Positions 1,424-60,902 of a DNA stretch of 64,000 bases are shown here, piece by piece. The stretch is from assembly GCA_951406725.2 (NCBI GenBank), contig OX597816.1:138384001-138448000 (forward strand), read 5' to 3'. Under the pieces are notes generated by a model. It saw nothing but the letters and a program-made list of their open reading frames with translations, was not told the origin of the DNA and ran no database searches. This DNA is from Octopus vulgaris (taxonomy: Eukaryota). A program made the translations under genes and the position numbers. Every line of letters begins with the position of its first letter. Position 1 is the first letter of the stretch.

Positions 1424-1484
<61 letters not shown>

Positions 1485-1647
1485 GTTATCGCCATACTAA
1501 TATGGCATTCTTATAAAAATAAGAAAAAAGCTGTCCGCTTATTAGCTCCATGAGGCCATCGCCTTAAGTTAGCTATTTGATACACAAACTGTATCCATAT
1601 AACCTTCGAACAAGGGAGGTCAGTCGCTCCACACTACTTGACCGGCA

Positions 1648-1689
1648 GCTACAGACGCGTTTCGGGGTATTGCCCCTTTTCAATGCAGC
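1648..1689 (-). ncRNA. Minimal type I hammerhead ribozyme, U3:A8 variant (mirror copy)
   Basis: Reverse complement of 2253-2294. Confidence 0.75.
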
Positions 1690-2252
1690 GTAGCCAGCCA
1701 GTAGGTGTCGCTTCCGACAATCTCTGTTCGATGGTTTTATTTACCTAGTTTCGGTGGAATACATCCACTTGTTTTCAATAATAGAAATATTAAAATAACT
1801 AAGTCTCTCTAAAAGAGAACAGCGGCAGCGTTCCCGGAAAATAATAGTTATCGCCATACTAATATGGCATTCTTATAAAAATAAGAAAAAAGCTGTCCGC
1901 TTATTAGCTCCATGAGGCCATCGCCTTAAGTTAGCTATTTGATACACAAACTGTATCCATATAACCTTGTTCGAAGGTTATATGGATACAGTTTGTGTAT
2001 CAAATAGCTAACTTAAGGCGATGGCCTCATGGAGCTAATAAGCGGACAGCTTTTTTCTTATTTTTATAAGAATGCCATATTAGTATGGCGATAACTATTA
2101 TTTTCCGGGAACGCTGCCGCTGTTCTCTTTTAGAGAGACTTAGTTATTTTAATATTTCTATTATTGAAAACAAGTGGATGTATTCCACCGAAACTAGGTA
2201 AATAAAACCATCGAACAGAGATTGTCGGAAGCGACACCTACTGGCTGGCTAC

Positions 2253-2294
2253 GCTGCATTGAAAAGGGGCAATACCCCGAAACGCGTCTGTAGC
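2253..2294 (+). ncRNA. Minimal type I hammerhead ribozyme, U3:A8 variant
   Basis: GCUGCA-UUGAAAA-GGGG(CAAUA)CCCC-GAAA-CGCG-UC^UGUAGC, with stem I extendable to 2242/2303. Confidence 0.8.
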
Positions 2295-2520
2295 TGCCGG
2301 TCAAGTAGTGTGGAGCGACTGACCTCCCTTGTTCGAAGGTTATATGGATACAGTTTGTGTATCAAATAGCTAACTTAAGGCGATGGCCTCATGGAGCTAA
2401 TAAGCGGACAGCTTTTTTCTTATTTTTATAAGAATGCCATATTAGTATGGCGATAACTATTATTTTCCGGGAACGCTGCCGCTGTTCTCTTTTAGAGAGA
2501 CTTAGTTATTTTAATATTTC

Positions 2521-2579
<59 letters not shown>

Positions 2580-2583
<4 letters not shown>

Positions 2584-3009
2584 TACAGGGCACCACAAAT
2601 AAACGTAGAAAACAACGAGAAACGAAAACATAAAAACAAACAAGGAAACGGACTTTTTTTAACAACGAAAAAACAGAGTACAAGACAAACAATACAAGGA
2701 ATATTCCTCTTCATCAGCTGCCCCTGATTGGTTCGACTCAATGCGTGTTTCGAAGGTAAGGGCAGAACACGATCCGGCCGAAACAATCCTTCCTGCAAAA
2801 TGAATTAAATAAAATTCCTTTGCAGAGGGGTAAAACAAGGAAAGAAAAAAAGTGACAAGAACAGGACGTAAAAGCAATACATATAAAAATACAGTACACA
2901 TAAAGAATAAAAATAGGACAATGAAACCAACATTGAGGGCTTTTTTAAGCCTAGACGGTGGAAAAATGACTGAGCGCCTCGCGTCGTTTCGTTTCTTATC
3001 CTCCAAGTA

Positions 3010-3010
<1 letters not shown>
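2580..3010. mobile_element. Short interspersed repeat between (TA)n tracts (probable PLE-derived non-autonomous element); related copy at about 55700-56150
   Basis: TA flanks on both sides. The layout ...CTTCATCAGCTG...TTTCGA is similar to CCCTTCATCTGTTGTC...TTTCAAGC at about 55818. Confidence 0.4.
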
Positions 3011-3057
<47 letters not shown>

Positions 3058-3905: not shown

Positions 3906-4066
3906 TCACCATAAATATCGATCAATAGTTTAGAACACGGTGACATAAAACATTTTTTTCTTATTTCTCTTAATTATAGAAAGAATGCTAAGTGTGATCT
4001 CAAGAAATGGAAAACAAAAACATAAATAGATATGATTATATATGTATGTATATATGTATATATATG

Positions 4067-4237
4067 GGTTTTCGCGAGGAATACTCACTAAGAGAGAGAA
4101 TTCGCCGGAGGAACCTGATATCCGAGCTAAAGATGAGGAAACAAATGGGAGAGAAGGGTTTACGAATCCAAGATGGACAGATAATCAAGTCCTACCTCTG
4201 GTCCCATGCTGTAGTGCTGACAGGGAAAGTGATGTGA
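4067..4237 (+). CDS. C-terminal part of LINE ORF1 (truncated)
   Basis: FREEYSLRERIRRRNLISELKMRKQMGEKGLRIQDGQII matches the CR1 ORF1 C-terminal pattern 'DLT..ER..R..L..ELK.R...GE..L.I..G.I'. Confidence 0.7.
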   Translation, partial: GFREEYSLRERIRRRNLISELKMRKQMGEKGLRIQDGQIIKSYLWSHAVVLTGKVM

Positions 4238-4329
4238 GGGCAAATCGAAGTGAAGTTGATACCCCCGTCAACGATGCTATCTCTGATGCCCTTTATTCTG
4301 CTTGTTCCCCAACTCCCGCCCCTCAGACT

Positions 4330-7121
4330 TCACAGCTCAGCATCGTCTACACCAACTCGTGCTCCTTATTCCCAAAGTTCAGTGAACTATTTACACTGGC
4401 CATACGTGACTCCCCTGATGTGATAGCTATCACCGAGACTTGGCTGACTCCAGCAGTAAAGGACTCAGAAATCCACCTGCAGGGCTACGTCCTTTTCAGA
4501 TGTGACAGAGGAAAAGGGCGAGGTGGAGGTGTTGCTGTGTATGTTAAGTCTGAGCACAAACCGTCCTGCGGTATTCTACCCACAAATGCTCAACCTACAA
4601 CCAAATTCGATGCCATTTATTGCAAACTGAGCCTATCTGAGTTTTGCCTGCCCGTGTTGGCTGTCTACAGGCCGCCTCTAGCCGACCCCCAGGACGATGC
4701 TCATCTACTCGAAGCGATAAGATTCGTTTCAGCTTCGCATGACTGCTTGGTACTAGGCGACTTCAACGCTCCCACGATCGATTGGCCCGCATCAATTTGT
4801 ACAACATCTTCCCGGTTCGGCCAGGCCCTTCTTGACGTGGCTGAAGATTGTTTTCTATCGCAACATGTTGAATATCCGACAAGGCATCGGTCTGGGCAGC
4901 AGCCATCTATGTTAGATCTGGTATTCTCCCGCTATCCAAGATCAGTGTCAGACGTATCTGTGTGCGCCCCTCTTGCCAAGAGTGATCATGCGGTCCTGAA
5001 GTTCGTCATGCACACAACTTTTTCCACGCCCGCGATTACTTCGCTGCCACGTAGAGTCTTCTCTGCAATTAATCTTGAAATTCTAACCGAGGCTTCCGCG
5101 CTTCTGGACTGGCGATCCCTGATGACGTTGTCCTCAGTTGACGAACTATGGTCATCCCTCAAAGCATATGTAATCTGTTTGACTGACCAGGCAGTTCCCG
5201 TTGGGCTTCCCAAGAGGAAGAAACACAAGCCCTGGGTGACGAAGAAGGTTAAACGAGAACGTCGACTCAGAGATATTGCTTGGGCTGAATTCAAAAATCT
5301 GGATTCGACTGCAGCTTTTGAGGTGTACAAAACTCAACGAGACCGAGCCGTGAAAATTGAAAAGAAAGAACGCTTCAGTTATGAATACAAAATCGCGGCA
5401 AATGCCAGTAGCAATCCAAAAACCTTCTTTGCCCATGTCCAGCGGAATTCCCGCTTGAACAACCAGATTGCAACGTTGGTAGACTCAACAGGCGTATTGA
5501 TTGAGGACCCTTATCAACAGAGTCAATTATTTGCCGAAGCTTTTTCAACTATTTTCAAACAAGATGATGGTCGTGAACCCCCTCCATTTGATAGATCGGT
5601 ACCTCCAATGCTTCGATTGATCATCACGCGGGACGAAGTCAAACGTGTTATTCAAGGCCTCGATGTCAACAAGGGTCACGGCCCTGACGGCATACACCCA
5701 CGGGTTATCAAAGCGTTGGCTCCGGTCATCTGCGAGCCCTTAACACGACTATTCAATATGTCATTGGCGACGGGTGTTATACCTGCAGACTGGAGAACAG
5801 CGATAATCTGCCCAATTTTCAAGAAAGGGAGCCGCGAAGACCCGCTTAACTACCGACCGGTTTCCCTCACATCAATAATCAGCAAGATGTTCGAAACCAT
5901 CCTTAAGAAAAGTATGATGCTCCACCTCCTAAACACAGCCTCGATCACTGATTCCCAACACGGCTTCGTGCCGAAGAGATCATGCTTGACCAACTTACTA
6001 GTAATGGAAGAATTGGTGACGCGCATCCTCGATGATAGTGATGCTGTTGACATCGTTTTATTGGACTTTGCCAAAGCTTTTGACTCGGTAAACCACCGCC
6101 TACTACTTGTCAAGCTTCAAGCATATAGTTTCCATCCGGATATTGTACGATGGGTTGGTGCCTTCCTCTCAGATCGCTCCTTCCAAGTTCAAGTTAATGG
6201 TTCGCGGTCCGACGTCTCCAGTGCGAGCAGTGGCGTGCCTCAAGGTTCAGTGCTTGGGCCCTTGTTGTTCTTAGTCTTCATAAATTACTTGCCCGACGAC
6301 CTCACGCAACACACCCTTCGATTTGCCGACGATATCAAACTGGTCGCTCCTCGCGGTAGTATAGAGGATCTTCGTCGATGCCTCCACCAAATTTGGAAGT
6401 GGTCTAACGATTGGGACCTGTGTCTGAACGTGTCAAAGTGCTGTCATCTGCCTGTCGGCTCTACTCCTGCAACTCAACTTGATTTCGAGCCGGGTCGTCT
6501 GCTGCTGGAGAGGACCGATCAGGTAAAGGACCTGGTATCTTGGTGGATTCCTCCTTTTCGCCTTCGGCCCAGTGCGTCCATGCTGCCAACAAAGCGCGCG
6601 GAATTCTGTTTTTGATTCGACGGTCATTCGGAATGCTCACAGCAGCCATATTCCTGCCACTCTATGTCACGCTGGTGAGACCCATATTGGAGTATGGGAT
6701 TCAAGCCTCTTCTCCTTATCTCCTCAAAGACATACAGCATCTCGAAAGAGTCCAGAGGCTGGCTACCCGCATGGTTCATGGTCTCAAAAATTTGTCCTAC
6801 GAAGAAAGGCTGAGGACGCTCGACCTTTATTCTCTTGAAAAACGCCGCCGCCGTGGTGATCTCATTCTCGCCCACAACATCATAAGCGGGAAGTGTAACC
6901 TCTCGAAAGAGCTGTTCTTCACTCTTGCTCCGGAGCGTCGGCTGCGGGGTCATTCCGAAAAGCTCTACCTGCGACGATTTCATCTCAATCGAAGGAGAGG
7001 AGCTTTCTCCGTCCGGGTTGCGGATCCGTGGAACAAGCTGCCAGACGAGATGGTGAAGATGCCGACGACCGCTTTGTTCAAAGCCTCCCTTGACCTCAAG
7101 TGGCCTGAACTCTTTACATGA
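4330..7121 (+). CDS. LINE ORF2: apurinic endonuclease + reverse transcriptase, with one 1-bp deletion at about 6534 (start codon not defined)
   Basis: APE motifs YTN, TETW, VYRPP, GDFN, LDLV, SDH; RT motifs NYRPVSLTS, QHGF, LDFAKAFDSV, GVPQGSVLGP, FADD. KDL-GILVD is restored by adding one G at 6534-6535, joining ORFs 4042..6615 and 6540..7121. Confidence 0.92.
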
Positions 7122-11332: not shown

Positions 11333-11504
11333 TAATAATAATAACAATAATAACAATAATGATGATGATGATGATGACGACGAAAATGATAACAGAAAAT
11401 GCACGAAATAGTCAATAGCGCTGACATATGGTGATGACATTAAATAAGAGACTATTTAGTCTGCTGCTAGTTGGCCAGTTTTTATAGACTAGCAAAATAA
11501 TAAT

Positions 11505-12190
11505 AATCCTCTCTACTACTAAAGGCACAAGGTCTGAAATTTTGGGTGCGAGGATAAGTCGATGACATAGACACCAATACTCAACTGTTACTTAATTTAT
11601 CGACCCCGAAAGGATGAAAGGCAAAGTCGACCTCGGCGGAATTTGAACTCAGAACATAAGGACGGACGAAATGCCGCTAAGCATTCCATCCGGTGTGCTA
11701 AAGATTCTTCAAAGTAATAATGATGATAATAATAATCTTTTCTGCTATAAGCACAAGGCCTGAAATGTTGGGGAAGGGGATTGGTCGATTACATTGACCA
11801 ATAATGTTCAACTGGTTCTTATTTCATAAACACCGAAAGGACGAAAGACTAAGTCTACCTCGGCGGAAATGGAACTCAGAACGTAGCAACAGACGAAATG
11901 CCACTGAAGATTTCGTCTGGCGTGCTAACGATTCCACCAGCTCGCTGCCTTAATAATAATAATGATAATAATAATAATAATTATTATAACAATAATCTTT
12001 TCTACTTAAGACACAAGGCCTCAAAATTTGTGGGGAGGGAACTATTCGATTACATCAACCCAAGTGTTTCACTGGTATTTCATTTATAGACCCCGAAAGA
12101 ATAAAAGGCGAAGTCGACCTCAGCGGAATTTGAACACAGAACGTAGAGACGGACGAAATCCCGCAAATGATTCTGCTAGCTCGCTGCTTT
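11505..12190 (-). mobile_element. Three consecutive SINE family B copies separated by (TAA)n tails
   Basis: Three diverged copies of CGACCCCGAAAGGATGAAAGGCAAAGTCGACCTCGGCGGAATTTGAAC. Confidence 0.85.
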
Positions 12191-12204: not shown

Positions 12205-15200
12205 CAACTGCATTTCCCTCCCGGTCAAAAGAAGGCAGCAGGACAATCCTCTCAATGGACTCAGCTGATAACCGGTTCTCTCCTACACGTGGCAACAGCT
12301 GTTCGACAAAGCTCCACAGGTCATTAATGCATGGACACTAGATGAGTGCATGCAGGACGGTTTCATCGCCCTGCGCATACCCCGGACAGGTCTGTCTGAC
12401 AGCATTTCCGCCTCTGTAGAGCTTGCATCGAACCAGCAGAGCTCCCCAGTAGCACAGCCAGGCCAGAGATTTCTGGAAGTTATCCATAGACCCTGGCCCG
12501 AAAGTCTCCCGGAAAATACCAGTTAGTTGACCCCTCCCGATGCCCAGAGTTTCCCCGGGTATGTCGTGGCTCTTTCTCTCCACTAATTTTCTATAGAGCT
12601 CCATGGTACAACTTCCATCGACCGCGTTGCCCGACTGGCAGTCCGTGAGCGCTTGCCGACACTCTAGGTGCCAAGCGTCGTTTCTTGATCTGCGTTTGAC
12701 CCAGAACTGTAGCCCCATCAATGAAACGAGCTGCGGAAAGTCCCTTTTGACGGAAGGCAACCACACCTGCTCACCGTTAAGGAAACGCTGGATATGTCAC
12801 AGCCTCAGCACATGTCTGCGCATCATTAGCCACAGCATATCCAGTCAGCATCTGTTGACAGTAGATGGATCGTCTGACAAGCGGAACACGTCCCTTCCAA
12901 AGAAAGTGGAAGAGCAAGCGCTCAAATTTTATCAGGCACGAGGTGGGGCAAAGGACGACGGTCAGGCGGTAGTAGATGACGGAAGCGATGTAAGCATTCG
13001 CCAACTCCACCCGATCCTTCAGCAACAGCTTCCTCTCTTCCCATTTCTGAATGAAATTGGCAACCCTGCTCCCCCAACAGTTCTTGTCCACCTGGAGGTC
13101 TGGATCAAACCAGACGCCGAGCAATTTAACCGGTCCTTCTGTCCAGTGCCCTACAACGCTGTCGATTAGCATTCACCTACCGCTGCAGGTGCCGAGCTGC
13201 AGACCCACCGACTTTGCCTGGTTGAATTTTGCTCTTGTCACCACTTCATACTCCTTTAGAGCGGTGCCAACCACCTCGATTTCCGAGATGCCCGACACTA
13301 TTACGGTGACGTCATCCGTGTAAGCCGACTCGAACCTTCTGCAGGATGCCCCTCGAAACACCAATGTTTCGCAGCAATGGCTCGAGAGCTAGTACGCACA
13401 GAAGAGGTGAAAGTGGGCATCCTTGACCGACCGAACGAGCTATGCCGAAAGGTGGCCATTTACTTTGACTACCGAAGAGATGTCACTGTACATTGCAGTG
13501 ATCCAGCCTCTGAAAACGTGAACGAAACCTGCTGTCGTGAGAACAGCCTCCAACGGTTGGTGGTCGATCCTATCAAAAGATTTCGACTCATCCAAATTGA
13601 TTAGGGCCCCACCCATGCCAGGTTCCTTACCCACCCTCTCGATGATGTAGTGCGTGAGGTGGAGGTTGTCGTGGATAGTTCCGTATGGGATAGTGCATGT
13701 CTGCGCGTCACCGACCAATTTATCGACCACAAGCGCCAACCACTCGGTTAACACCTTTGCAAAAATATAATCTGCATTCAGCAGAGTTATAGGCCTAAAA
13801 TGATCAATTTTGTACCCCATGATTGAGTCAACAACCCCACTCCACGACTCACAACACTGGGAATTCCCCCGTTCTGCTGTCAGTTGTGGTAGACGTCTGC
13901 CAGGAGAACACCGAACAAGTTTGGCATGGGAAAATAAAGCTCCAAGGGCTGACCATCCCGCACCAAAGACTTCTCTCTTGCGCAGGCCTTCATCACGTCC
14001 CGGATATCTTCGGCTGTTATCGGCATTTTTCAGAATTACGCATCCCTAGCTGAGAAGCGCAGCATTCCGCTGAGATAGGAGGTGAAATCCACAACCTCCC
14101 AGAACCATCGCGCAATTCTGTGAAGTCCGCTGAAATTCCGCACACATCTGCTTGGACTCGGTTATCATGCACCCATCACAGCTCGCTAAAGACCGAAGTG
14201 TTGATTTGTTTCCTCGAAGCGCTTCTTCCACTCGGGCCCAAGGAAAGGCTTTCGTCCCCTACTGTCTCACGGCACGGGCACTAGTTCTGACAACATAACA
14301 TTTGTGCTTGGTATTGAAGAAATGATCAAGAGTCGATCTCGCCGCTAGCACGTCAGTCGCTATGCCTTTACTAAGCACCTCTCCTAGCTTCCTAACTAGG
14401 TCTCCCTCTATCTTAGATTCCTCTAACGCCTTTGAAAAGTGGGCAACTTATCTACAGGGCATCAAAATACGCTGCCTAGATACGATCTGCAAGACCCGAT
14501 GCAGTTCACCCATGTCCACATTGGCGCATTCAGGAAATCCAGTCGGTACGTGTCAGCCAACTGGAGACGTCTCAGCAGGTTTGTGAGGCTTTTACTCCCC
14601 CCTCTCCTAGAAGCTAGCCCCACCCTATCCAGACTCGTACCTCCCGAAATATTAGAGGCAAAAGAGAGGAAGAGTATATATTTCAGATACGTATGACGCA
14701 AAACCCGGAGGTCTGAAATAGCGTCCATCAGTCATGTTGAGAAGGCTCCCACAAAAATTTTAATAGATGTCACCCAAATACAGAGAGGAAGGCAGTTTTC
14801 CAGCATTGAGGTCCAAGATGGCATTTCAGTCCGGTGACTTTGGCTGCGGATCTGGTTCCACTTGGAAACCGGCTAAAAGCCTCTTCGTGGCGCGAACCTT
14901 TGGCCTTCCCACGTCATGCGGGCAAGCCCTCTGATTTTTTTTGTCTGCTTTGAGGGGTAGCAATAGGTGATCTGGAACCCTAAGGGTACTGGTGTCGTAA
15001 ATTGCATCCTTTCTCTCAATTTCGTTGTTTGAAGTACGTGAGTTAACAAATTTTTGTTGGTACTCCTCACGAGCACATAATTCGCTGATTCCATATTGGT
15101 GACTGTGAGCTTTATTTTGGTGTGTACATGTGGTTGTGAGAGCATTGGAGCATTGGTGGATTTGGTTGGGGTAGTGGTGGTTGTGAGTATGGCGGTGCTT

Positions 15201-33299: not shown

Positions 33300-34305
33300 T
33301 TGTTCATACATAAATACATTACTAAGAAAATACAAAACATTTTCACGGAAGTCTCCCTAAACACATTCTTAATATCACTAATCTAAAACCAAGCTAGTAC
33401 AACGAACACACAATCCAGACACCTCTCTATCACGCTTACACGACATGATAAGCCAATACTAGATAAACGTCCTTCCCCATCACGCAACTTTACTAAGTCC
33501 CAATTGCTGACCTTACAAAATTTAAGAAACAAAAACCTCATCTACCTACCTTCAGATAAAAGGAAAGAATTCTGCATTAGAGATAAACCCGCCCACAGCA
33601 AACTTGCTACCGAACATCTCAGTGACACCACACTATACGAAAAGTTTCACAACATCACACCTCACCAACCGGAGTCCACCATCAACACCAGGTGGACCAA
33701 CATCTGTCACCAAAGGAATCTCTCTAAGAAGGCCAGAGTGAACTACACATCTAAAAACACCACTATTTCTTCTACCGTTTAATAAAATCATTCCACCATT
33801 TAATAAAAACCCACAAACCCGGACCTAAGCTTAAAATCAGACCCATAGTATTAGGAATTTACGGTCCTTTCTATAAGATTTCTTAGCACCTCTCTAAACT
33901 CCTCAAACCCTTAATACACGCATTCCCCGGACACGTCAGTTGCACCCACGAAGTCTTCTCAAGACTCAACGATATCGATCCATCCATACATAAAACTAAT
34001 AAATACCCTTTTAGTTTAGACGTTGTTTCCCTTTACACCTCTGTACTCGCTCTCCCGACCGCTGATATCCTCATAGAACAGACCAGGTCCTTACCTCCAC
34101 CCCAACTCTCCTTGCCGCCACTCTCCCTCCTCATCTCTCCCTCTCTCCCATACAACCTCCTCCTCCCCATCTTCCCCTTCATCTTCTCTCACCTTCCCAT
34201 CCATCAACCTCCAGCTCTTGGGCCTCACACCTTCGGACATACGAGAGTTAGTAACCATTATAGTTGGTAACACCTATTTCCAATATAACGGTGTGATTTA
34301 CAGAG
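33300..34305 (+). mobile_element. Decayed Penelope-like element RT fragment
   Basis: IYLPSDKRKEF, HLSDTTLYEK, FHHLIKTHKPG..KIRPIV, FSLDVVSLYTSV, NTYFQYNGVIY; truncated at (GATA)n. Confidence 0.85.
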
Positions 34306-44738: not shown

Positions 44739-45324
44739 AATATTCTTTTCTACTCTAGGTACAAGGCCCGAAACTTTTGGGGAGGAGGTCAGTCGATTAG
44801 ATCGACTCCAGTAAGCAACTGGTACTTAATTTACCGATCCAGAATGATGAAACGCAAAGTCGACCTCGGCGAAATTTGAACTCAGAACGTAAAGACAGAC
44901 GAAATACCTAATTCTTTACTACCCACAACGGGCTAAACACAGAGAGGACAAACAAGGACACACAAACGGATTAAGTCGATTATATCGACTCCAGTGCGTA
45001 ACTGGTACTTATTTAATCGACCCCGAAGGGATGAAAGGCAAAGTCGACCTCGGCGGAGTTTGAACTCAGAACGTAGCGGCAGACGAAATACCTGTTTCTT
45101 TACTACCTACAAGGGGCTAAACACAGAGGGGACGAACAAGGACAGACAAACGGATTAAGTCGATTATATTGACCCCAGTGCGTAACTGGTACTTAATTTA
45201 TCGACCCCGAAAGGATGAAAGGCAAAGTCGACCTCGGTGGAATTTGAACTCAGAACGTAACGGCAGACGAAATACGGCTACGCATTTCGCCCGGCGTGCT
45301 AACGTTTCTGCCAGCTCGCCGCCT
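44739..45324 (-). mobile_element. Trimeric SINE family B (184-bp period) with one head and a flanking TSD
   Basis: GACGAAATAC at 44898, 45082 and 45266; TAGATATTTTT at 44728-44738 and 45325-45335. Confidence 0.85.
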
Positions 45325-59269: not shown

Positions 59270-59677
59270 TAGGTGCAGACGAGGCAGTGTGGTAAGAAGC
59301 TTGCTTCCCAACCACATCGTTCCGGATTCAGTTCCACAGCGTGCCACCTTGGGCAAGTGTCTTTTACTATTGCCTCGGGCCGACCGAAGACTTGTGAGTG
59401 GATTTGGTAGACGGAAACTGAAAGAAGCCCATAGTATATGTATATATATATATATATATATGAGTATATGTATATGTGTGTGTGTATGTGTGTGTGTGTG
59501 TGTATGTGTATGAATGTATACGTTTCTGCGTCTGTGTTTGTCTCCCCACCATCACTTGGCAACTGATGTTGATGAGGTACGTCCCCATAACTTAGAGGTT
59601 CGGAAAAAGACCGATAGAATAAGTACGAGGCTTACAAAGAATAAGTACTGGGGTCAATTTGTTCGACTAAAGGCGTC
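59270..59677 (+). mobile_element. SINE family A
   Basis: Family consensus, truncated at CGACTAAAGGCG. Confidence 0.85.
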
Positions 59678-59689
59678 AGTCAAATGGTA

Positions 59690-60250
59690 TCAATGAAGAG
59701 AGAAGGTGAGTAGGAGTGTAGTAGGTGTCAGATGAAGAGAAGAGAGGAGGGGACCTGAGCTCATGTGGCGCAAAAGAGCGAAGAGAGAAGATTAATTTCA
59801 GTTCACAGCGAAGGCGAGAATCCGGATAACCCCTGTGCAAAGACAATCTGAACACAAATAAGTGTTGCAGTAAATGAATGACCTGTAGAGCTGAAATAGC
59901 GTGAGACCGGGGTGTCATCGCCACGTCTGATGTCTCGGAGGTGCTCCGCGAACCGGTCAGCCAAGCTGCGTCCCCTTTGACCGACGTACAGAGAAGAGCA
60001 AAAAGAGCACGAGATGCAGTAAATGACGTTGCTAGAAGTGGAAGTAAAGGAGTCGGTGATATGATAGGGACGATAATGGTGGTATTCGAGAGGTAGGGGC
60101 AAGTTGGGCAGCGTGGGCGGGAGCAGGGGAACGAGCCAAACTGGGAGGTGGGTTAATGGAAGAAACTGTGGAACAGGTCAGGCAGGTTGTGGGCTCGTTT
60201 GAAGGAGGGGCGGGGCAGGTTGGGGAAGATGTGCGAGGTGGAGGGGTCGC
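59690..60250 (-). mobile_element. Penelope-like element (Neptune-type) linker + GIY-YIG endonuclease remnant
   Basis: FKRAHNLPDL, GSFPCSRPRCPTCPYL (Cys linker), SFTSTSSNVIYCISCSFCSSLYVGQRGRSLADRFAEHLRDI..PVSRYFS..GHS, RLRCELKLIFSLRSFAPH. Confidence 0.9.
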
Positions 60251-60902
60251 CAGAAGGCTCGGAGAATGGTGTGTTGGAGGAGCAGGGTGGTTGGATGGTA
60301 CGTTAAGATTGCAGTATCTGGATTCCTGTCCAGATATGATATTTAGATCACAACCTGGTAGGGATCGAATTTGTTCACTGAAAAGCGGATTGTGAGCTTG
60401 AAGGCAACTATAACTACTATCTGTTAATCTTATGGAAAACATATCTAAATATGGTTATGATACTTTACTTTGACCTAAGCGTGTTTACGGTACTTCATTC
60501 AATCGTCCCTTGTACTCCGATAAAACAACTGAAAGCACTTCTTCCGCAAGTTTGTCTTATGCACTCATATATTCTAAAGAAGAAAATGTGAAACAGAAAC
60601 ACATAAAAGACTGCCCCAAAACTGAGAAGACGGCATCGGGTTTGGTCTGTGATGTTCATAACTCATTTGGTTTCTCATTGGTGTTTCGTTTCCTTCATAG
60701 CCAATTCCATATTAGAGGGAATATGGCTCTTAAAAGTGCATTTGTATACATCTGTGTGTTAGTGTGCGCATACGTGAGCGTGTGTATGTGTATACGTATT
60801 CCTAAGTGTTGGGTATATGTGATGACATGCTTGAGCTTGTGTCTACGTGCATGCCTCTGTCTGTGTACGCAGTAGTGAATATGTATGTACATCTGTTTGC
60901 AC

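Follow-up and report, generated by a model that had tools for sequence, protein, structure and literature searches.

The 64,000-nt stretch of Octopus vulgaris DNA analysed here (hereafter, the window) contains, embedded in (TA)n, a perfect palindrome built from a single repeated unit of 362 nt, and the question it raises is what kind of element this unit is, and which machinery inserted it and turned one of its arms around. The matter is of some general interest, because the enzyme that mobilises animal retrozymes is still a hypothesis, Penelope-like elements (PLEs) having been put forward as 'a strong candidate' (PMC7229834). A unit that encodes no protein, bears the insertion marks of Penelope and forms arms longer than one unit makes this hypothesis of Penelope mobility testable, and a locus of this kind can serve as a trace of the part that Penelope would play in moving retrozymes. 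The answer developed below, which we consider reasonably likely, is that the window copy belongs to a multi-copy family of non-coding hammerhead retrozymes, that it was inserted into (TA)n by Penelope, and that one arm was inverted by fold-back of the cDNA. The parts of this reading do not stand equally firm: the retrozyme identity of the 362-nt unit is highly probable, that the enzymes of a PLE drove the insertion is probable, and snap-back as the inversion step is held to be moderately likely.

Architecture of the locus and of its predicted hammerhead

Exact comparison of both strands showed that residues 1479-1968 and 1974-2463 form arms of 490 nt that are 100% complementary and separated by a loop of only 5 nt (1969-1973), in full agreement with an earlier note based on the sequence of this locus. 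Both arms are made of the same unit, with a period of 362 nt and zero mismatches: 1479-1606 equals 1841-1968 (128 nt), and 1965-2164 equals 2327-2526 (200 nt). The unit is thereby present 1.55 times on the + strand (1965-2526) and 1.35 times on the - strand (1968-1479), in a head-to-head arrangement in which the 5' ends (in the RNA sense) meet at the centre. The tandem nature of the arms had been recognised in the earlier note as well, and only its boundaries required adjustment, to 1965 (not 1969) and 2526 (not 2525). Because the junction coincides with a 4-bp hairpin that is native to the unit and found again at 2327-2339, residues 1965-1968 are shared by the two arms. At its 3' end, the right arm is 63 nt longer than the left one, so that this extension is one-sided. 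The (TA)n setting and the absence of an ORF, also pointed out in that note, were corroborated by the runs found on both sides (Table 1) and by the fact that, when both strands of the circularised unit are considered, the longest ATG frame comprises 38 aa and the longest stop-free stretch 55 aa. No further copies of the 362-nt unit were found elsewhere within the 64-kb window, and no host gene was identified around the locus among the ORFs of at least 120 aa examined.

Table 1. Coordinates of the palindrome, its arms, its predicted ribozymes and the adjoining (TA)n runs, as positions in the window
Feature	Position	Strand	Remarks
Left (TA)n target run	1427-1481		Last 3 nt overlap the end of the left arm
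Left arm, inverted, 490 nt, 1.35 units	1479-1968	-	3' end (RNA sense) at a CTATTAT site
Type I hammerhead of the left arm (predicted)	1648-1689	-	Mirror of 2253-2294; core start 1683; predicted cut after 1654; coordinates obtained through the 490-nt fold-back
Fold-back junction, native 4-bp stem with 5-nt loop (1969-1973)	1965-1977	+	Putative self-priming point
Right arm, 562 nt, 1.55 units (unit = 1965-2326)	1965-2526	+	GC 41.7%; no ORF
Type I hammerhead with closing stem (predicted)	2242-2303	+	From fold and descriptor
3' extension of 63 nt, one arm only, Penelope-like 'tail'	2464-2526	+	Ends at the second CTATTAT of the unit; tail as described in PMC8557442 and PMC3846280
Right (TA)n target run	2524-2580		First 3 nt overlap the end of the right arm

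Each arm carries one predicted hammerhead, with cores starting at +2259 and -1683, and the predicted fold places the cut after C2288; both the number of ribozymes and the position of the cut coincide with what had been proposed before. Briefly, the fold comprises helix I (2253-2258/2289-2294, 6 bp), the core from U3 to A9 (2259-2265), helix II (2266-2269/2275-2278, 4 bp with a 5-nt loop), residues G12 to A15.1 (2279-2282) and a short palindromic helix III (2282-2287), and it is completed by an internal loop (2250-2252/2295) and a closing stem (2242-2249/2296-2303). The core reads U3-U4-G5-A6-A7-A8-A9, that is, a U3:A8 pair replaces the usual C3:G8 pair. Such a replacement has been described as a natural covariation that is active in vitro (PMC3088659, PMC4209133) and occurs in schistosome PLEs (PMC4209133). 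Reading the core as CUGAUGA with an insertion was abandoned, given the 6-bp helix I and the U3:A8 core of the fold. Two copies of the unit can pair through the palindromic helix III, so that a hammerhead dimer would perhaps be needed.

The ribozyme call is based on our own relaxed descriptor, on the predicted fold and on the published U3:A8 variant. The relaxed type I descriptor matched these two sites only in the 64 kb and none of 2000 dinucleotide shuffles of the unit, while helices I and II showed pairing probabilities of 0.94-1.0 within the predicted circle. Three Rfam searches gave no hammerhead, either at the gathering score or at E values up to 10, and the exact hammerhead pattern had 0 matches among metagenome and viral contigs. 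What Rfam did match at the junction were generic models of miRNA hairpins, none of which reached its gathering score, and these matches were discarded. The U3:A8 core escapes both Rfam and descriptors built on C3:G8, which suggests that families with this core are undercounted and may explain why no octopus retrozyme appeared among the literature matches listed, which are mainly open-access papers whose supplements may list cephalopod ones.

A multi-copy family and its predicted RNA circle

The existence of a multi-copy family, anticipated by the earlier note, was confirmed in public sequencing runs, since 20 of the 24 runs listed (11 studies, 8 organism labels) contain 94-100% of the 31 words sampled from the unit, and the contigs that match it number in the thousands in two deep DNA runs, X8 and X3. 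Fifteen of the 20 matching runs are free of a possible-source flag (five carry one), as are all the rows of seven of the 11 studies. In four matching runs, the contigs total only 5-6 million letters, and the fact that the unit is matched even there suggests that it is present in high copy. The contigs of four of the 20 matching runs (X3, X4, X7 and X8) were aligned to one unit (2040-2401). The window's DNA may originate from X3, X4 or X8. None of the matching runs is recorded as RNA; for nine of them RNA status is by guess only, so that X7 represents no evidence of expression. The summed depth of the contigs is not a copy number, and the contigs show neither the ends nor the strand nor the level of any RNA.

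A head-to-tail wrap joint of 362 nt was found in all four runs, and in X4 the unit formed a single unbranched loop contig of 392 nt with 0 differences. X8 yielded 2449 contigs, 928 of them at least 99% alike and 601 less than 95% alike (with X8 covered to ~80%), and the corresponding figures in X3 were 1863, 654 and 494. Because the contigs span identities from at least 99% to below 95% in both runs, young and older copies of the family coexist. The earlier qualification of the unit as 'very young' would consequently be applicable at best to the window copy, and not to the family (601 of 2449 and 494 of 1863 contigs being less than 95% alike). The window copy is identical to the majority sequence of X4 and X7. 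As for the perfect identity of its arms, it could also stem from the polishing of reads, which may even out differences between copies of an abundant repeat.

Insertions other than that of the window can be glimpsed in the same runs. Among the 18 loose contig ends shown out of 220, two enter (AT)n, and the others resemble, by eye, diverged unit; no continuation into an ORF was seen by eye among these 18. One contig of X3 shows another copy that ends at 2103 into (AT)n, and one contig of X7 a copy that starts at 2330 after (AT)n. A further contig of X3 (depth 44) links the unit to the opposite strand at 2057/2268, which corresponds to an inverted copy with another junction. The window's own fold-back joint was not among the six joints listed for the four runs, in which contigs prove presence, not absence. 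In X8, five contigs run, behind 2244, into an apparent decayed hammerhead, as expected of old, defunct copies. No editing signal was readable in X7, where two A>G and three T>C changes were counted among 10 changed places.

The behaviour of the unit as an RNA was explored by folding the circle, that is, the monomer opened at the predicted cut site. Its minimum free energy was -121.9 kcal/mol, compared with -83.5 ± 5.1 in 100 shuffles (z = -7.5; 0 of 100 as low), and that of the antisense circle was -104.1 kcal/mol. The whole unit is predicted to fold as a self-contained rod plus a multiloop, in which the first 57 nt past the predicted cut pair with the stretch preceding the core, an interaction that would hold the ends of the monomer together. 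The variants of the family avoid breaking the pairs of this predicted circle: among the 21 listed substitution sites, 11 are unpaired, seven keep the pair and three break it, against 8.15 pair-breaking sites expected when the same changes are placed randomly on the same bases (P 0.006, an optimistic value, given possible linkage between the sites and a structure derived from the majority sequence). Removing the four sites that are rare in DNA runs left two pair-breaking sites of 17, compared with 6.5 expected (P 0.006). No listed substitution site falls within 2228-2296, and both sites in the closing stem retain pairing.

Insertion anatomy and the inversion step

PLE insertions have been described as partial tandems with an inverted, 5'-truncated copy, a one-sided tail of 30-40 bp and a bias for microsatellites (PMC8557442), and the palindromes at their head-to-head junctions have been interpreted as the result of self-priming on the antisense strand (PMC3846280). 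As the inverted arm, the junction hairpin, the one-sided 3' extension (63 nt, longer than the published tail) and the (TA)n setting of the window copy correspond to these published Penelope marks, the palindrome is most likely a self-primed product. The fold-back is no special design of this locus, the same form having already been published for Penelope insertions (PMC8557442, PMC3846280). The assignment, in the earlier note, of the non-coding, hammerhead-bearing unit to a retrozyme or Penelope-type family, arranged as a partial tandem with an inverted part, is supported. Two further details concern the ends. Both outer ends fall on CTATTAT, a motif with exactly two occurrences in the unit (a pattern noticed after the fact), and both show 3-nt microhomology to (TA)n, of a kind possible at 24 of the 362 positions of the unit. 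Snap-back of a cDNA end is possible at 25 of the 362 positions, the junction being among them.

The following sequence of events is proposed. Tandem copies located elsewhere would be transcribed and cut by the hammerhead after C2288, yielding monomers whose ends, held by the long rod, could be circularised by a host ligase. A Penelope GIY-YIG/RT protein would nick (TA)n, and the nicked end would prime at CUAUUAU (equivalent to 2520-2526) by 3-nt microhomology. Reverse transcription would then run for 562 nt, a copy that exceeds the unit and crosses an intact cut site, so that the template would have to be either a circle or an uncut multimer. In the last steps, the end of the cDNA would snap back at the 4-bp hairpin (1965-1977) and copy itself for 490 nt, until self-copying stopped at the other (proximal) CTATTAT and the product was attached to (TA)n on the far side, with the 63-nt tail remaining at one end only. 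Stalling of the reverse transcriptase at the base of a helix at the junction was also considered and dropped, as the junction lies at a small internal loop inside the long rod. The following observations count against this proposal: no autonomous PLE sharing the unit's sequence was found, and the PLE remnants of the window do not match it; the anole PLE protein primes at sites without homology to the cut DNA (PMC11167929), whereas a 3-nt microhomology is invoked here; the tail has 63 nt instead of the 30-40 bp of published PLE insertions; and the X3 inversion joint at 2057/2268 is not a single-site snap-back.

The main rival to snap-back, although an unlikely one, is twin priming on a linear primary transcript, in which both nicked strands would prime cDNA at the two CUAUUAU sites, with no need for a circle, and both cDNAs would run up to one shared 5' terminus or stopping point close to 1965-1974, where they would be joined via 4-nt complementarity. 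Such a course fits the properties of the anole PLE protein, which cuts AT-rich DNA on both strands and extends both, starts within the RNA downstream of the hammerhead, with two neighbouring internal starts defining the tail, and has uncut RNA as its main substrate (PMC11167929). It would also agree with the termination of both arms at the same motif, with the two unlike ends of the X3 joint and with the copy of X7 that begins at 2330, which, in one contig, hints at a fixed 5' boundary. However, two independent cDNAs would have to stop at most 9 nt apart, and to do so on a hairpin, a coincidence that snap-back explains without any extra assumption, and no promoter or start site was found.

Relation to known elements and output of the locus

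The closest known relatives of the unit are the metazoan non-LTR retrozymes (Cervera and de la Pena 2020, PMC7229834), above all those of mussels, whose units measure 350-390 bp. Animal non-LTR retrozymes are described there as LTR-less elements of 150-450 bp with less than 50% GC, and the testable features given for them (PMC7229834, PMC7761336) are all present in the unit. Specifically, it shares with them its size of 362 nt, its GC content of 41.7%, the lack of ORF and LTR, a canonical type I hammerhead, the organisation as a tandem multi-copy family, and a strongly self-paired predicted circle in which the ribozyme is free to fold. Differences lie in the U3:A8 core, which takes the place of C3:G8, in the (TA)n target and in the two arms of this copy, which meet head-to-head in opposite orientation and carry one ribozyme on each strand. 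Non-LTR retrozymes self-cleave and accumulate as linear and circular monomers. They also lack a PBS and a polypurine tract and have target site duplications of more than 4 bp, when present; here, a duplication would be unreadable within (TA)n. The two consecutive hammerheads that characterise an 'active' copy (Li et al. 2026) are not found at the window locus, which counts against the retrozyme reading, as do the negative Rfam searches. The retrozyme class, the inverted form and the core variant have each been described already, and the 362-nt unit is most likely an additional member.

With EN+ PLEs and their pseudo-LTRs, the locus has in common the partial tandem, the inverted 5'-truncated copy, the junction palindrome, a one-sided extension resembling their tail and the (TA)n or AT-rich target (PMC3846280, PMC8557442, PMC11167929, PMC4209133). 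Their hammerhead lies upstream of the 3' end, as it does here, at distances of 175 and 238 nt. In contrast to them, it has no RT/GIY-YIG ORF, a canonical and not a minimal hammerhead, a tail of 63 nt in place of 30-40 and 3-nt microhomology to the target at both ends. An ORF with a telomerase-like RT and a GIY-YIG endonuclease being absent from the locus, this is no autonomous PLE, and the unit works like a Penelope passenger. Vertebrate retrozymes have similarly been presented as PLE derivatives on the basis of co-occurrence and pLTR phylogeny (Li, Clavereau, Pollet 2026, bioRxiv 10.64898/2026.07.22.740005), in a work in which eight of nine predicted Xenopus retrozymes showed no cleavage, a further point against the retrozyme reading here. 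Common to both cases are the proposed parasite-helper relation and the existence of monomer-type daughter copies unable to transpose; unlike theirs, the argument made here draws on how the insertion is built, and no pLTR that matches the unit was found within the window.

This kinship raises a second alternative, namely, that the 362-mer is the pseudo-LTR region of an autonomous PLE, of which the window would contain a heavily 5'-truncated copy, and not an independent retrozyme. We regard it as quite improbable, even though every insertion mark found here is a PLE mark, the window contains PLE remnants, PLE debris has been reported to carry two hammerheads, one on each strand, at distances of 100-700 bp (PMC4209133) and retrozymes are described as pLTR derivatives (bioRxiv 10.64898/2026.07.22.740005). 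Against this possibility stand the head-to-tail self-joining of the unit in four of four runs, with the unbranched loop of X4, the loose contig ends, where the 18 shown of 220 gave no ORF continuation by eye, and the fold of the whole unit into a self-contained rod plus multiloop. The build of the ribozyme points in the same direction: helix I of 6 bp, helix II of 4 bp and a short palindromic helix III are the canonical metazoan arrangement (PMC4209133), to which the predicted retrozyme-type hammerhead conforms, whereas the pseudo-LTRs of PLEs carry a minimal form (PMC4209133, PMC7229834).

The palindrome must finally be considered as a possible product of sequencing. A perfect palindrome with a short hairpin at its turning point is what a fold-back chimera looks like. 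An artefact of the library or the assembly within a real family (a fold-back chimera, or polishing that equalised the arms) is nonetheless very improbable. Complex PLE insertions are known to cause trouble in assemblies (PMC8557442), and this copy matches the sequence that predominates in X4 and X7, but a simple fold-back would reproduce the right flank on the left side. Instead, the left arm ends 63 nt earlier, on the motif that also closes the right arm, and gives way to unique DNA unlike that on the right (a comparison of the two flanks gave one 22-nt match, E 0.08). This layout agrees with published natural PLE insertions (PMC3846280).

If the retrozyme reading is followed, the output expected from the locus itself is limited. 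The relaxed descriptor found one hammerhead per strand; therefore, any circle must derive from tandem copies elsewhere. A 362-nt monomer cannot be excised from this site, and the window copy would make no contribution to the production of circles. In the predicted fold of a read-through transcript from either strand, the ribozyme lies fully paired inside the 490-bp duplex. Transcription outwards from the centre of the palindrome would give no duplex, and dsRNA from it, which the earlier note proposed as a substrate for ADAR and endo-siRNA pathways, would need an outside promoter. A promoter scan gave no exact pol III A or B box, octamer or sense TATA, and no tRNA-derived head was found; one B-box-like match with a mismatch was located at the junction, along with several T runs.

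A more ambitious notion, which must be considered doubtful, is that a cephalopod retrozyme with the U3:A8 core has remained nearly unchanged across several octopod taxa through selection on its RNA fold, with abundant circRNA and self-primed fold-back insertions. If this were true, the fold-backs would prove directly, at the level of the genome, that retrozyme RNA is copied past unit length by Penelope enzymes, and such insertions would seed perfect dsRNA hairpins in a host lineage known for heavy ADAR editing.

Other elements are scattered over the window. A LINE on the + strand (4036-7121), which we take to be of the CR1/L2 type, has an endonuclease-RT frame of 859 aa (Pfam RVT_1, E 9e-32, and Exo_endo_phos), appears to extend into a second frame and looks recent. 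A decayed RT remnant occupies 12338-14045 on the - strand (Pfam RVT_1, E 1.4e-4, below cut-off), and broken frames at 33387-34270 (+), with no Pfam match, contain motifs that are presumably those of a Penelope RT. The broken remnant of a Penelope-type GIY-YIG endonuclease with Cys motifs lies at 59676-60454 on the - strand (Pfam E 0.045, below cut-off); among 226 candidates, it matched only a protein labelled as Octopus bimaculoides, with 74% identity over 53% of the remnant. Two SINE-like tandems, whose units we assume to be octopus SINEs, are found at 44791-45275 and 11497-11934 (period 184, 2.6 copies, and period 227, 1.9 copies, respectively). To the right of the palindrome, a segment (2581-3013) lies between two (TA)n runs, and on the - strand, at 2717-2711, there is a CUGAUGA box followed by a hairpin and lacking GAAA, which the hammerhead scans did not call and which is perhaps the decayed hammerhead of an older insertion.
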